A stretch of DNA of 7,432 bases, taken from contig CAXTKV010000235.1 of assembly GCA_964244895.1 (NCBI GenBank), forward strand, positions 1 through 7,432, given 5' to 3'. Position 1 is the stretch's first letter. Each line of letters starts with the position of its first letter. Source of the stretch: an uncultured Deinococcales bacterium. Its GTDB lineage: Bacteria > Deinococcota > Deinococci > Deinococcales > JAAFIG01. Shown one piece after another: positions 1 through 6,000 of the stretch. The position numbers were made by a program.

Positions 1-3000
1 CTCAAAACCCGCACCGAAGCGGGCGGCGATAAAAAAGTGCAGCAGCAGAAGTTTCCCGAACCGACCCGACAGGCGCTGAAATCGCTGTTCCTGACGGAGC
101 GAGCGCTCGAGGTCGCGCTGTACGGACGCCAACTCACCGATCTGCCTGAGGGCACGGTCGATGGTCAGGTGCAGGTGATGCACGCCCTTAGCGTTCATAC
201 GGTTCTCGACGAGGAAGATTTTTTCTCCGCCGTTGACGATTACGAAACTCATACACACGGGGCGTCCGGCATGCTGAGAGAGATAGGCATCAGCGCACCG
301 ACCTATTACCGCATGGCCGCCGTCAACGTCGGTCAGCTGGCCGTCGAAGTCAACAGTCCGGAGGCGGCCCTCACGGGTGCCAGGGCATTCATCGAGGCCT
401 TCGTGATGACGTTGCCGCTCGGCGGGCGCAACTCTTTTAGCTCCTTGACCATTCCGCAATTCGTGATGCTGCAGCGCATCGACGCTGGCGAAGCGCTGAA
501 CATGAGCCCCGCCTTCGAGCGGCCCCTGATCACCCCGCCATCGATAAGCATGTCTGATCGGGCGGTCGAGATCCTTGATGGGTATATCAAGCGCATCGAA
601 CGGGCGTACCCGAGGCTCCAGGGTCGAAAGCGGGTTTGCTTCAACGTGACTGGTGTTCAAACGGAAATCGCGCCGACCGTCGATAGCCTCGACCAGGCCA
701 TCTCGACCATTCTCGAGTGACATGGCCACCCTAATCTTGCGCCTCGAGGGTCCAATGCAAGCCTGGGGTGTCGATGGAGCTGCAGAAGTGCGGCGAACCC
801 GCATTGAGCCGCACAAGAGAGCCGTGCTCGGGCTCGTCCGTGCGGCCAGGGGATTGACCCGAGCCGAGACCTGGCCCGAACTGGAACAACTCGGGTTCGA
901 GACAATCACCCTGAGCCGTCCCCGCCGCATGTGGGATTTCGGCACGATGTCGAACGTGATCTCGGCGGATGGTACGTTCATCCACGGACAAGGTGTTCAG
1001 CACCGCGAATACCTGGCCGATGCAGCGTTTCTGGTGGCCCTTGACGGCCCCAAGGAGTTGCTGGATGAGGTTGTACGCGCATTCGAGAATCCGCAGTTTC
1101 TGCTCGCGCTCGGTCGGCGCGATTGCGTGCCGAGCTACCCAATTCTGTGGGGCATCTCGGATGACCCTCCAGCACCTGCGCTCGAGCAGGCGAGAGCGAT
1201 GATTGAGTCGTTCGCGAATCAGTGAATCCCTTTGCGGAGCGGCTCATCGGCGGATCAACCGCAGCGCTTACGGCAGCGTTCGTTTCGATGGCTGTTTTTT
1301 GCCAGAAGTGCTCGAACGTTCCGCGTTTTCGAATTCCACGGTTTTGACGGCTTGAGCCCCGACGGGAAGTGCCCGCTCGATCTTGAGGTCTGTACCGCGC
1401 ACACGCAGTGTGCACGAAGAACACCAAATCCTAACTCCAGCGACCTCGTTCCACACGCTCCAAGAGCGAATCAGATTCCGGCCTGAACCGACTTTGTTCG
1501 GCGTCCCGTTTGCCAGTGGGATCGAAAGCCGGCCACAGACACCTCGCTTGAAACATCCATCCCTTTAGTTCCTATTGCTTTATCGTTTTGCAGAACGTTT
1601 GATGAGGTAGACCGCGCGGCCCTCATCCCGGATGAAGCCCTGCGAGACGAGATGCCGGTACGCGTCCCCGAGATTGCCCTGAAGCCCCGTCAGCGCCCGC
1701 AACACCCGCTTCTCAAGACGGTAGCCCTCCGCCCGCTCGAGCCGTTCCACCACGATCCTCGCCTGCCGTGCGACCTCCGCCGCTTCCGACGGCGTGAACG
1801 CCGGTGGAGCCACCCGCTTCGATGCCGAGCCCAACGGCACGTCACCCCGTTGACCAGACGGGTCGCGCGTCCGGTCGCGCGCCGATCGATGCTCGCCGCG
1901 TCCGCTCGAGTTCGGGCGTTGTGCGAGGACGGCGATCCGCACTGACCGCTCAAGTTCGCGCACGCTGCGCTCCAGGTGGCGATTCTCCCGCTCCAGCGCC
2001 GCGATCTGCTCGAGCGCGGCGTCGCGCTCGGCTGCCACGCCCTCGCTTTCGAGCCTGACCTCCTCGCGGACCTGCGCTTCGACCGCAGCACGCCACTCCG
2101 TATCGCTCACCCACCCTGTGGCCTCCTGGACGAGTGCGAGTTGGTGCCTGGCCAGCTCGAGCGCGATGAAGCTCGAGACGACGTGTCGTTGCGACGGTTC
2201 AAACGCCTCGAGCACCTCGGTGTATGTGAGGCCCTCGCACGCGGCGACGGCGAGGTCGTATCGCGCCTGCGCTTCGGTAATCACTGCGCGCGAGGACGAT
2301 TCGCGCGCAGTGACGGCGGATGCTGGGTGATCGGTGCAAGGCAGCCTCGTTTCGCGGTCGGCGCGCTCAACCCTTGAATCGGACTCAGGCGAAGCGCTCG
2401 AGTCGTGGCTCGGTGGGTTGCGATCCGAGCGACCGATCAACCAGTCCGTGGTCTTCTCGAGCACGTGCGCTAGCGCGCTCAGCTCGATGTCGGTGACCCG
2501 ACGCGCGCAGTTTTCGAGCGACAGAATGCCTTGCGAGGACAACGGGTCGGGGGTGATCGGGTTGATCTGGCGCGCCAGGGTCTTGCGGTCCCATCCGAGG
2601 GCTTCGCGGGCGTTGCGGACGCGGGGTCCGCACAGGTTGCGCGGACCGCCGTAGCGGAGCAAATCGTGAAGGTTCGAGTCGGAACCGTGGACGCGCTGGA
2701 GGTCGGAAGGGCCGTAAAGGGGCGTAGAACGGGTCGTCTCGAACGACGGTTGATGAGGTTGCGCGGACTCCTCCCAGGGCGAGTCGGGCCTCTGGGATGG
2801 TTCAGGGATCCGCTGCTCTTGGAGAGCGAGGGCTGCGGGTTGCGCAGCCTCGTCGGAAGCGGATTCGCGGTGGCCGGTCACGCGTCGTCCTCGGCGCGCT
2901 CCGGACGGATCTCGGGTTCTTGGCGCGTTGGTTTCCAGTCCTTCCAGCGCTGCGGGATGGCGAGGTCTACCGCCTCGATCTGCCGCACGATCAGCCTCGA

Positions 3001-6000
3001 CCCGCTCAGGCCGCCGTTGACGCTGACGAACGCCGCCCCCTCGACCTTCGAGAGCAGCTCGAGCGAGACGAACGCGCTGACCGTGAACGGCTCCGTCGGG
3101 GATTGCTCCGGGAAGATTCGCAAGAACACCAGGCCGTTCGTCCGGTCGAATCGCACGACCTTGCCCGCCGCACTCCACACGGCTGGCGCGTCCTCGAGAT
3201 CCGGCGTCACGGGCCGCAGCCGCCGCACGAAGACCGGCTCGTGCGGTCGGCCAGGCCCACCGGCCCGGAAGTGGATGCTGGCCCGCCAGCGCCCGGACAG
3301 GGCCTTCCCGAGGCGCGCGAGGTGGGTCGTGACGCGCGAGCGCATTAGCGTGCCGTCCTCGAACTCGAGATCGACCAGCGACCCGCGCCCGGAATCGTGG
3401 ACGGTCACGTTGGCGGACAAGAAAGCGTGATGTCCAGCGGGGAAGCTGGCGCTCGCGTGGCGTTCAGTGGGCTCTGGCGCAGACAAACGGATCCTCCTGA
3501 ATGAACGGCTTGGTCGTTGGGACGCGAATCGAACGACGGGACGACCGACGCGGAAAAGCCTGGGTAGGAGGCCGTCCTCGTCGGTCGTTGAAGTCAAAAG
3601 CAGCGGGTTGTGGGCTGGAGGCCAGCCGTTGGAAACATCAGCGTGAAGGTCGGGTGGTGTTCGGCGAGCGCGTTTGCGCCTCGCATGGGGGATGGGACGC
3701 TGAAGATGCGAACTGGACGAGCTTACTCGATTTCGAGGATTGACAATCGGTGGGACTTCGCGCACGCGCGGCTGATCTGGTGGGTGGCGATAAGGCGAGA
3801 AGTCACAGCTCGCTTCACCTGGAAAGGAGCGTGGTGAACGAGACGAAGCCGCTGGGCTCCGCGAGTGAGTTGCGCGTCTGCACCACGTACCCGAGCCGAC
3901 CCCCAGGTAAGACGGTGAACGATCCCGCGTTGACGCCGAACGAGTCCGTGCTCAGCTCCCAGTTGATCGTCGCCCGCCGCGCCCAATGACCCCCGACGGG
4001 GCTCGAGACCGCGATGACCGATCCCTCCTGCACCGCCACGAGCGGCGAACCTCGATCGTCGAAAACCGTCTGCAGGTACGCCCCCGTGGCGGAGAGGCCG
4101 TCCGGCAGCGCTTTCCAGACGTTGCCCTCGAGGTGGTACGCGAACACCGGGGTTGCGCCGGCAAAGCGCTTGCGGGTCACGAGGTACGACCCGCCCGCAG
4201 GATCGAGCATCACGTCGAGGAGCGTCTCCTTCAGGTTCGCGTCGAGCTTGAGCGGCGGACCCAGCGGTGTCCAGGCCGAACCCTCGAGGTCGAACACCTG
4301 CGCCTGGCCGTCGTTGACGATCGCCGCGAGGAGCGGTCGGTCGGGCAGCCCGGTGGCCCGGTAGAGGCTGCCGGTGAATCCCTCGAGAAGCCCATCGCCG
4401 CTCGCAGTGAAGTTGGACCGATTCGGAGTCGGTGCGTTCAAGCCCTGCCACGCGCCCCCCGAGAGCTGCCAGAGTTGCCCTCCGCCCGCCATGACCTCGG
4501 GCGTGAGGAGGTACAGGCTGGGGTCGAAGGTGAATTGTTGCGAGCGCGCCGTGGCGATCACCTGCCAGTCCGAGTCGACCAACCGCAGGGTGTAGATCGT
4601 ACCCGCGCGGTCGCAGGTGGTGAGGGTCAAGTTGCGACCCGAGCCGACGAGGAGCGATGAGATGTTCGAGAAGGAGTTGAACGCGACCGAGCACCCACCG
4701 AACTCCTTCGTGGGCAGGCTGAACGGCGCGCCGAGCGGCACGGGTTTGCCATCCAGCAGGGTCGAGACCTGCATCGTCTCGCCCTTGTACGCGTCCTGCC
4801 CGCGCGTCAGGCGGACGGGCATCGAACCGACGAGCACTTCGAGCGCGTCGCCCGTGGCCTCCGGGAAGGCGCTTCGTTTGATCGTCGAGCGTGCCACGGC
4901 CACGCCGCGCTCGGACGCGAACGCCGCGCCGGCCCGGTCGACGCCCTTGGCGGTGATCTGAAGATAGGTCGCGCTCGGGCTGAAGTCGACGAGCTTGACG
5001 CGAATCGTCGCGCCGGATCCGTCCTTGGCGAGCGTGAGGCTGATCGGCACGTTGCGCTTGGTGATGGGGTCGCGCACGGCGACCGGGTTCGGGCCGCTTC
5101 TGGCGAGGTCCGCGAAGTTCCGGAGTTTCACGGCGATGGTGGCGGTCTCGAGGTCATCCTGAAGGGCCCAGTCGGCTTTGACGATGCTGGTGGGGTTGAC
5201 CCAATAGGCGACGCGCAGGGCGTTGCTGGTGATTCGGGTTTGACCGACCACGGCCCTGGCCTGGATGGTGAGGGCGAGGTCGGTCGGGAAGAGTCGTGCG
5301 AAGGGTCCAGTGAATCGGACGGGGAGCTTGGTTTTGCCGTCGGCGAGGTTCGGTTTGAAGGCGATGATGTCGATTGGGAGCGTCGTGTTCGAACCGGGTT
5401 GGTCCTCCATGATGGTCACGACCATGGACGAGGCTCGGCGGGAACCGCTGAGGCGGGCGGTGAGGAAGGTGGTCGGCGCGTGGGTGTAGATGGTGGTTTG
5501 GCTGGTGTCGGCGAAGCTCAGGTGGAGGGTGGGTGTTTGTGCATGGGCTGGAGTGCTGAACGCGAGGAGTAAGCCGGCGATTGCGGTGGCGATGGTGGTG
5601 CGGTTGTGATGCATGGTGTGACCCCTCCCCAGGATCGAGCCCAAGTACATTTTGATCAATATATTACGACGCTATTTACAGCGTCGCATCATAATGCCTC
5701 TCGAGCGCAGCCTTGGCCGTATGCCCAGGTCACGCCAGACCACGTCCAGGCAACGCCGAGAACCTGAAGAACTCGCGTTTCGCAAGGTTCTGGGCGAGCG
5801 GATTCGCAGCTTGAGGCGCGAGCGGGGACTCAACCAGGACGAGTTCTCGGACCTCGCGGGCATCGGTCGGGCTCACGTCGGTTGGATTGAGACGGCGCGG
5901 GTCGAGCCGCGACTGGTCACGCTCAAGCGGATCGCCGACGCACTCGGCGTGAGCATGGCGGTGCTGTTCCAGTTCGAATGACCCGAATTCGCTCGGCGTT

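Follow-up and report, generated by a model that had tools for sequence, protein, structure and literature searches.

The gene g04343, located inside a genuine type I-E Tn7-like CAST whose insertion site is comEA, encodes a protein predicted to fold as two OB domains. It belongs to a family without a name, found on Deinococcota mobile elements, whose members are basic, lack a tail, and have both OB domains in one chain. We put at about one in two the chance that it is a plasmid-derived, PriB-like ssDNA-binding accessory protein carried by the transposon as XRE-linked cargo. The window, the whole stretch of 7,432 nucleotides that was analyzed, has the following features (coordinates, strand, description, basis).

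1..720, plus strand: 3′ part of cas7 (type I-E), continuing from contig C102
722..1225, plus strand: cas5e, the final gene of the Cascade operon (Pfam-type search)
1580..2881, minus strand: g04342, 433 aa, with an XRE-type HTH at 88-148 (sequence)
2878..3486, minus strand: double-OB gene g04343, 202 aa (ORF and predicted fold)
3493..3498, minus strand: ribosome-binding site AGGAGG, 6 nt upstream of the g04343 TTG (read from sequence)
3815..5659, minus strand: cargo gene, 614 aa, hydrophobic N-terminus (ORF)
5697..5981, plus strand: stand-alone XRE-family HTH regulator (domain match)
6093..6428, minus strand: 111-aa ORF that reads away from the recombinase; contig C191 has a paralogue (ORF and comparison)
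6554..6581, no strand: perfect palindrome (12+4+12) upstream of the recombinase (sequence)
6636..7430, plus strand: tyrosine recombinase, truncated by the contig end (domain match)

With its TTG start codon and AGGAGG, both read from the sequence, the 202-aa reading frame is a real gene, as a preliminary description had it, and lies 1,653 nt past cas5e, in agreement with the earlier figure of about 1.6 kb. The stop of g04343 and the start of g04342 overlap by 4 nt. Contig C102 shares 55 nt with the start of the window and carries tnsA, tnsB, tnsC, tniQ, cas6e, a 4-repeat array, cas8e, and cas11. The host CAST has both cas11 and the OB gene, the latter forming a separate operon with g04342 on the other strand, and these counter-points of the preliminary description are upheld. 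A pair spaced 61 nt at 1305/1366 was rejected as a CRISPR array; the array sits on C102.

The model of g04343 (pLDDT 91.6, pTM 0.82) consists of two five-stranded OB domains, at about residues 20-92 and 103-172, which are predicted to pack within one chain like an SSB or PriB dimer, with a basic core and no SSB tail; the modeled chain ends ∼25 residues past the second OB. The tandem OB fold reported earlier is therefore confirmed, with 10 strands counted rather than 11. The best structural match is the SSB of T. thermophilus (2cwa; Z 11.7, 152 residues aligned, rmsd 3.3), tied with the editosome A3-A6 OB pair (Z 11.1), and the third row falls to Z 5.8. Foldseek likewise ranks Thermus and Deinococcus SSBs first (E 3e-5 to 8e-4), and phage SSBs are among the BFVD matches covering the whole length of the protein. 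The TM-scores of 0.45-0.49, together with the editosome tie, mean that the ligand is not fixed by the fold, which counts against a PriB-like reading.

Sequence comparison gave no name to the protein. As described previously, g04343 has no Pfam family (none at E ≤ 0.1), and no PHROG or NCBIfam family names it. None of 124 family members matches the SSB Pfam family at E ≤ 0.05, hhalign of the family against the host SSB gives a probability of 0.5%, and a PDB sequence search with the family found nothing at E < 0.3; the lack of a sequence link to SSB is a point against the PriB-like reading. The family is basic (median pI 9.9; pI >9 in 95 of the 124), and an SSB-type acidic tail, present in the host SSB, is seen in 0/124. 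The position of R74 is R/K in 86% of these sequences, and positions 19, 72, 104, and 134 are aromatic in 77%-91%. Among the nine residues previously called invariant, G108 and F134 (and in addition G158) hold across 29 sequences, the other seven do not, and in the 124 sequences only G108 and G158 reach 90% conservation. Twenty of the 124 show a loose pattern of the motif for the beta-clamp, through which TnsE directs insertion to replicating plasmid DNA; this count has no control.

From structure prediction, charge, and gene context, the ssDNA-binding role suggested earlier for g04343 appears likely. The Deinococcus/Thermus SSBs (2cwa, 2ihf, 3udg) similarly have two OB domains per chain in the SSB-dimer arrangement, but the family shares only 12%-16% identity with them, has no PF00436 match or profile link and no acidic C-terminal tail, and is found mostly on mobile elements. 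PriB, which keeps the SSB-like fold but has no SSB-type C-terminal tail (PMC8509808, in part), resembles the family in being an SSB-like OB dimer unit, basic and without an acidic tail; an excerpt of PMC12614216 further describes TtePriB of Thermoanaerobacter as two consecutive OB domains with mainly electrostatic binding. The single-domain PriB matches (4gs3, 4fdb, 3k8a) are nevertheless in the common-fold range (Z 5.2-5.6), there is no sequence link, and no priA/dnaT context was seen at the OB loci. PMC12614216 also predicts that HelP (ICEBs1), OrfL/OrfM (ICESt3), and Orf22/Orf23 (Tn916) pair like SSB/PriB dimers. As presented there, these are small accessory proteins with an OB fold that mobile elements use on their ssDNA intermediates, but they have one OB per chain and belong to Firmicutes ICEs with a relaxase context; no relaxase was found among the annotated neighbor clusters of the OB loci.

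OB pairs can also be imagined in other roles. The protein may instead bind RNA, protein, or a DNA end and act in an XRE-controlled regulatory, establishment, or anti-defense module of incoming elements, a reading that we consider possible though rather improbable. The editosome tie favors it, as does the precedent of OrfL/OrfM, OB proteins with weak DNA binding that serve as relaxosome adaptors in the account of ICESt3 (PMC12614216, in part). The genes downstream of the OB gene also vary, encoding a coiled-coil/helical protein, a 160-190-aa protein without a family, or a DUF2726 nuclease-like protein. The family-wide basic charge and the conserved Arg and aromatic positions argue against such ligands, and charge combined with the repeated initiator and parAB context described below fits DNA metabolism best.

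The distribution of the family is much broader than had been described. It comprises 181 clusters at 50% identity, instead of only 28, and is present in 73 of 364 genomes of the phylum; word-indexed protein searches, which returned 3 and 6 proteins, are too insensitive for it. The matches from single-protein locus scans (4 + 4) were short, at 23-68 residues, and were treated as chance and left uncounted. Of 104 loci, 82 were read; the 22 left out were mostly the lowest-scoring, and their coordinates show no tniQ match within 10 kb of any of them. Thirteen of the 82 lie by Tn7-like genes: five in I-E CASTs, two at type I-C tniQ-cas loci, and six in Cas-less Tn7-like elements. Replication-initiator-like genes of plasmid or prophage type (three gene clusters) are found within 1.5 kb of 22 loci and within 10 kb of 4 more, and 6 further loci are near parA/parB. 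These initiator calls are N-terminal HTH-level matches: for two clusters the match is to PHROG replication-initiator families (E 2e-8 to 6e-6), and the third has no initiator match. On pVV8 of T. thermophilus, an initiator-like gene, which we take to be the initiator RepV, is followed by the OB gene, an AAA ATPase gene, and parB. More distant relatives are on cyanobacterial plasmids, although four of the five searched gave no match, and one distant member is matched by 25 plasmid records.

Plasmids and prophage-like replicons, together with Tn7-like elements that have no Cas genes, account for most family members. The description of g04343 as CAST-own is not supported, and that of a family traveling with type I-E CASTs holds for 5/82 loci read. 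In the transposon-linked loci, an XRE gene is located within 350 nt in 10/13, and the OB gene has the same orientation as the tns/cas genes in six and the opposite in seven. In the PriB-like cargo reading, the two OB domains would join into a single sheet like that of an SSB dimer, and its conserved Arg and aromatic residues could grip ssDNA without sequence specificity, much as PriB and plasmid SSBs do. Where the gene is on a plasmid or prophage-like replicon, next to initiator and parAB, the protein would act in replication of the element itself. A single clade may then have been taken up by several kinds of Tn7-like transposon, riding as an XRE-linked accessory operon that would be no part of Cascade and would not be needed for RNA-guided insertion. 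Against this stand the HTH-level nature of the initiator calls, the 37/82 loci that fit no class, and three loci in a chromosomal-looking ribF-lipA context. Plain cargo also leaves unexplained why the 13 transposon-linked loci all belong to a single clade and why 11 of them are ≤1.7 kb from a target-selector gene.

The preliminary description had proposed that the CAST has a factor of its own, substituting for Cas11, to hold the strand displaced in the Cascade R-loop, a model that we now regard as very improbable. Cas11 is a basic, alpha-helical Cascade subunit encoded in the cas operon and proposed to contact ssDNA. The OB protein shares the charge and the proposed ssDNA contact but is all-beta, encoded outside the cas operon, and mostly found without Cascade. 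Homologs are indeed present in four of the five related I-E CASTs, with identities of 43% (G142), 36/33% (G127), 37/34% (G126), and 29% (G137); these genomes were equated with G017, G002, G001, and G012 of the preliminary description by inference from identity figures. As stated there, all four are cas11-less. In G126 and G127 two copies in tandem follow cas5e on the cas strand, at a distance of 0.6-0.8 kb. In the fifth, G139, which has a cas8e-cas11 fusion, no copy was found in the 9.6 kb fetched behind cas5e, nor was one found at three further I-E loci with tniQ. The OB gene therefore occurs in 4/4 cas11-less I-E CASTs and near one of five cas11-bearing I-E loci, that of the host CAST. This pattern is confounded by host family, with the three extra cas11-bearing loci coming from another family, and the host CAST shows that the two genes are not mutually exclusive. 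Moreover, 8 of the 13 transposon-linked loci are without a I-E Cascade (6 of these with no cas gene in the fetched DNA), tandem pairs also occur at a I-C locus and at cas-less loci, and in G126, G127, and G137 an XRE gene separates the OB gene from cas5e. Monophyly of the I-E copies was rejected in quick trees (p-AU about 1e-58 and 1e-72). The OB gene is thus neither restricted to nor co-inherited with I-E CASTs, and the spread of the family over plasmids and CRISPR-less transposons indicates that it is not a CRISPR part. For rebuilding these CASTs, the Cas11-replacement lead is removed.

Plain cargo does not account for the clustering of the transposon-linked copies, and a role in target selection has to be weighed. 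One clade of the OB tree (31 rows, SH-aLRT 93; quick trees) includes the I-E, I-C, and Cas-less elements. In 13 of its 26 loci, the OB gene is 0.4-4.8 kb from tniQ/tnsD or cas5/cas7, with 7 of the remaining 13 on contigs <9 kb, and the 10 kb around each of the other 56 fetched loci is free of tniQ, tnsB, tnsC, and cas cluster members. According to parts of Faure et al. (PMC10293859), the N-terminal region of TnsE is predicted to fold as two SSB domains related to PriB, and the remote TnsEs of Tn6022-like elements are encoded close to the left end and apart from the core genes. A section of Krishnan et al. (PMC12153342) reports that the TnsE N-terminal domain imposes 3′-recessed substrate specificity. 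By analogy, the clade might be a PriB-like double OB from plasmid replicons, domesticated by Deinococcota Tn7-like transposons (I-E, I-C, and protein-guided) as a stand-alone TnsE analog that recognizes ssDNA gaps or forks of replicating or incoming plasmids; this is an unlikely reading in our view. On this reading, the OB protein, alone or with its downstream partner, would offer TnsC another target pathway, specific for DNA structure, in addition to homing by crRNA or TnsD. In G138 no further operon lies between the OB-partner operon and the three repeats and ACA end that adjoin a tRNA-Leu gene. No far end was found in the DNA fetched for G127, G142, G126, G139, G051, or G022, so the position of the OB gene relative to element ends is known for G138 only.

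The possible resemblance to TnsE lies in tandem PriB-like SSB domains, predicted for TnsE in the part of PMC10293859 concerned, that are encoded in Tn7-like elements, sometimes far from the core genes. The OB protein is a stand-alone chain of 202 aa, whereas TnsE has 538 aa and a dsDNA-binding C-terminal domain that the OB protein lacks. Profile similarity is not detectable (hhalign against a shallow 9-sequence TnsE N-terminal alignment, 0.2% and 0.9%), and none of the 124 members matches a TnsE family in Pfam or NCBIfam; the absence of TnsE from the listed fold-search rows is uninformative, as its N-terminal domain is not in the PDB. In addition, the partners differ between elements, only 12/104 tniQ elements of the phylum have an OB copy within 10 kb, and the family is also present on transposon-free replicons. 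Clade support is below the 95 mark, and the clade includes four long-branch loci with no transposon genes nearby. Cargo also accumulates behind selector genes.

The clade may nonetheless help transposons to find replicating DNA. If the analogy with TnsE were true, it would define a new target-selector class, repeat the co-option proposed for TnsE, and support the building of TnsE from a PriB-like replication protein. It would also offer a non-CRISPR route of horizontal spread for these CASTs, bearing on how CASTs without spacer acquisition reach plasmids, and the OB gene would be the one to omit for clean RNA-guided insertion. On the preferred PriB-like cargo reading as well, this is an unannotated SSB/PriB-like family on Deinococcota mobile elements, and its thermophile member beside the pVV8 initiator-like gene is readily assayed. 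The host element, a TniQ- and TnsA-bearing I-E CAST, may be a larger finding than the OB gene.

The coiled coil and helical C-terminus of g04342 recur in the gene that follows the OB gene in G139, G138, and G142; the C-terminus of this partner type is predicted to be all-helical at low confidence (pLDDT 63). The 614-aa cargo gene has no family above the Pfam cut-off, and a homolog is absent from the other loci read. No overlap of the window end with contig C225 and no continuation of the recombinase were found, leaving this gap unbridged. Across 1.26 kb, the recombinase region has 81% DNA identity to C191, the 9.9-kb contig on which the second OB copy of this genome adjoins a tniB-tniQ locus and which has no cas gene. 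The palindrome at 6554..6581 is retained on C191 with one change and is probably a recombinase binding or resolution site.

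The window comprises contig C235 in full (7,432 nt), and its start shares 55 nt with C102, another contig of the same genome. The features concerned are the following.

2878-3486, minus strand: OB gene, 202 residues; TTG start, AGGAGG six bases upstream
C102: tnsB, tnsC, tniQ, cas6e, cas8e, cas11 (by PF09485 at the cut-off) and cas7

The stop of the OB gene and the start of its partner g04342, a 433-aa XRE-HTH gene, share four bases. On C102, the gene ahead of the tnsB-cas7 set groups with TnsA-like proteins upon clustering, and an array of four repeats lies between cas6e and cas8e. 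The last spacer of this array matches the comEA gene of the host at 26 of 32 bases, with an AAG PAM in front, and the element end follows 53 nt behind this protospacer. comEA was found in two halves, the SLBB part on C102 and the helix-hairpin-helix part on a further contig, C225. Both element ends are flanked externally by the five bases CGTAC, a 5-bp duplication. Among the genome sites with ACA and CGTAC, the C225 end is most like the first end (20 of 30 bases; runner-up, 15). The split comEA, the shared CGTAC and the likeness of the ends place the OB gene between both ends of the element, across an unbridged gap from the window end to C225.

The host element (L001:9889-18256, window:1-1225 and L149:1-172 in the fetched stretches) is a Tn7-like type I-E CAST with tnsA, tnsB, tnsC and tniQ; cas3 is not seen between cas6e and cas5e. 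In contrast, the Streptomyces I-E CAST, as far as its description goes (bioRxiv 10.1101/2024.11.13.623437), lacks TniQ and has kept cas3. No TniQ-bearing I-E CAST was found in the literature searched. The two-OB SSB gene of the host (L001:3761-4639), without sequence kinship to the OB family, lies 5 kb outward of the tnsA-side end; its closeness to the CAST is probably a coincidence.

The preliminary description of a protein without a Pfam family and with an SSB-like double OB fold was borne out. A Pfam search found no family, and the AlphaFold2 model (29-sequence alignment; pLDDT 91.6, pTM 0.82) shows two groups of five strands each, ten in all. The top Foldseek matches are the Thermus and Deinococcus SSBs (E 3e-5 to 8e-4, TM 0.45-0.49, identity 12-16%). 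The predicted shape is that of an SSB-type OB dimer within one chain. Because a structure search of 48,161 chains returned both the T. thermophilus SSB (Z 11.7, 152 aligned, rmsd 3.3) and an editosome OB pair (Z 11.1; next row, 5.8), the ligand is not named by shape alone. No sequence link to SSBs was found by Pfam on 124 family members, against PDB sequences or by profile comparison with the host SSB. These 124 members have a median pI of 9.9, none carries an acidic SSB tail, and conservation falls on Gly, Pro, Arg and aromatic positions. As a working model, a family that is basic and tail-less, with such conserved positions, is nearer to PriB than to SSB.

A profile search gave 181 clusters at 50% identity, where only 28 had been reported, and at least 114 places in at least 73 of 364 genomes and at least 18 of 60 genera of the phylum; the genome counts are minima since no more than eight candidates were scored in each genome. 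One distant member matched 25 plasmid records, 23 of them from Thermus. The first pointer in the ESM Atlas was a cyanobacterial cluster, at a recognition value that the tool itself grades as weak. The 124-sequence profile matched one of five cyanobacterial plasmids (E 1.5e-6), and this single moderate match suggests relatives there. The matched protein in turn matches 12 cyanobacterial plasmid records, and parA/parB lie within 3 kb of it in two of three records examined. The Gloeothece plasmid relative (L131:1477-2466; 329 aa) has an extra C-terminal domain beyond the matched 190 residues.

Neighborhoods were read at 82 of about 104 loci (the window, a second copy in the same genome and 80 fetched), with neighbor genes clustered and 148 cluster representatives annotated. 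The family had been said to travel with type I-E CASTs, but just five of the 82 loci adjoin one. Two adjoin type I-C tniQ-cas5-cas8c-cas7, and six adjoin Tn7-like genes with cas absent from the fetched DNA. An initiator-like gene is present within 1.5 kb in 22 loci and within 10 kb in four more, parA/parB are nearby in six, and 37 fall outside all classes. The commonest Thermus order is XRE, initiator-like gene, OB, parA, parB, as in pVV8. In Deinococcus-type genomes the OB gene follows a 480-aa initiator-like gene, amid antirepressor and VRR-NUC genes. An OB copy lies within 10 kb of 12 of the 104 tniQ elements of the phylum, and within 20 kb of 14. The OB family is not CAST-specific.

OB proteins acting on ssDNA are already described from mobile elements, namely HelP and OrfL/OrfM (PMC12614216), as are phage SSBs, which are among the fold matches of the OB protein; replication and repair genes are reported as enriched in Tn7-like cargo (PMC8649781). 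A literature search, mostly outside subscription papers and wholly outside supplements, found no paper on this family, which is new at family level within a known kind of mobile-element OB protein.

The second copy in this genome (37% identity) is 0.5 kb from tniQ on a contig without cas and adjoins a paralogue of the tyrosine recombinase of the window. Two sites in this genome, window:6093-7432 and L002:8605-9860, share at 81% identity a set made up of a small ORF, a palindrome of 28 nt and this recombinase. Each set is truncated at a contig end and lies 3-6 kb from an OB gene; it may be a module for plasmid resolution that sits inside transposons. A family member of three genomes, all from a single genus (L113, L116, L119), has a riboflavin kinase/FAD synthetase operon on one side and lipoyl synthase on the other; this context looks chromosomal and perhaps reflects domestication by the host. 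Within one genus (L054, L055, L056, L059, L050, L068, L069), the OB gene is followed by a recurrent block, which comprises a gene of 160-190 aa with no family and genes for an HTH_Tnp_1 protein, a small membrane protein and a protein of 131 aa.

The preliminary description also proposed that the OB protein belongs to the CAST and replaces Cas11. The Cas11 profile indeed finds none in the four related CASTs (G142, G127, G126, G137), where cas8e abuts cas7, and the OB gene is present in 4/4 cas11-less I-E CASTs against 1/5 cas11-bearing loci. However, host family acts as a confounder here, and the pattern leaves eight transposon-linked loci without I-E Cascade unexplained. The CAST of the window has both genes. 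In G260, G258 and G244, of another family and with I-E and tniQ, cas11 is present and an OB copy is absent from the locus and by genome search. A quick tree rejected the I-E copies as one clade, with all seven and with one per element, and the proposal was not upheld. G139 has an OB copy and the same partner on a separate contig, which may or may not be part of its CAST. cas11 is lost outright in four I-E CASTs (L047, L052, L059, L140; cas8e of 394-449 aa) and fused to cas8e in G139, G260 and G258.

A single clade of 31 rows and 26 loci (SH-aLRT 93, below the tool's mark of 95) takes in every one of the 13 transposon-linked loci. A selector gene (tniQ/tnsD or cas5/cas7) lies within 1.7 kb in 11 of them and an XRE gene within 350 nt in 10. 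The OB gene of G138 and its partner come last in gene order, ahead of a repeat set that resembles an element end and lies at a tRNA-Leu gene. Faure et al. (PMC10293859) describe the TnsE N-terminal region as predicted to form two PriB-related SSB domains and place remote TnsEs close to the left end; recognition of 3'-recessed DNA is ascribed to this domain by Krishnan et al. (PMC12153342). A TnsE analogue might look like this, a double OB protein on its own, placed next to selector genes in several types of element. By this analogy the clade would be a stand-alone TnsE counterpart, which we consider unlikely: a weak profile test gave no homology to TnsE, the OB protein lacks a TnsE-like C-terminal domain, and its partners vary between elements.

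Related I-E CASTs (L138:6978, L139:6147, L137:224-255) are directed to differing target genes by a spacer of their array, which has its match next to the tnsA end.

G142: comM-like, 20/27, AAG PAM
G126: NFACT/RqcH-like 3' end, 24/32, AAG PAM
G139: rtcB 3' end, 29/32

Competence genes are two of the four I-E CAST targets. In another family, the I-E loci (L135:8288-16871, L134:2887-11923, L133:6976-12195) show a second architecture, tnsA-tnsB-tnsC-cas8e/cas11 fusion-cas7-cas5-cas6 with a short convergent tniQ, complete in G260 and in pieces in G258. Genes like tnsA/B/C are present in G260 and G258; G244 has none within 20 kb. There are three tniQ loci in this genome. Type I-C tniQ-cas5-cas8c-cas7 occurs here (L150:3-4725, contig C161), where cas5 and cas8c form a single 950-aa frame, and in two relatives (L053:219-4888, L050:9700-14500); the G138 element terminates beside tRNA-Leu.
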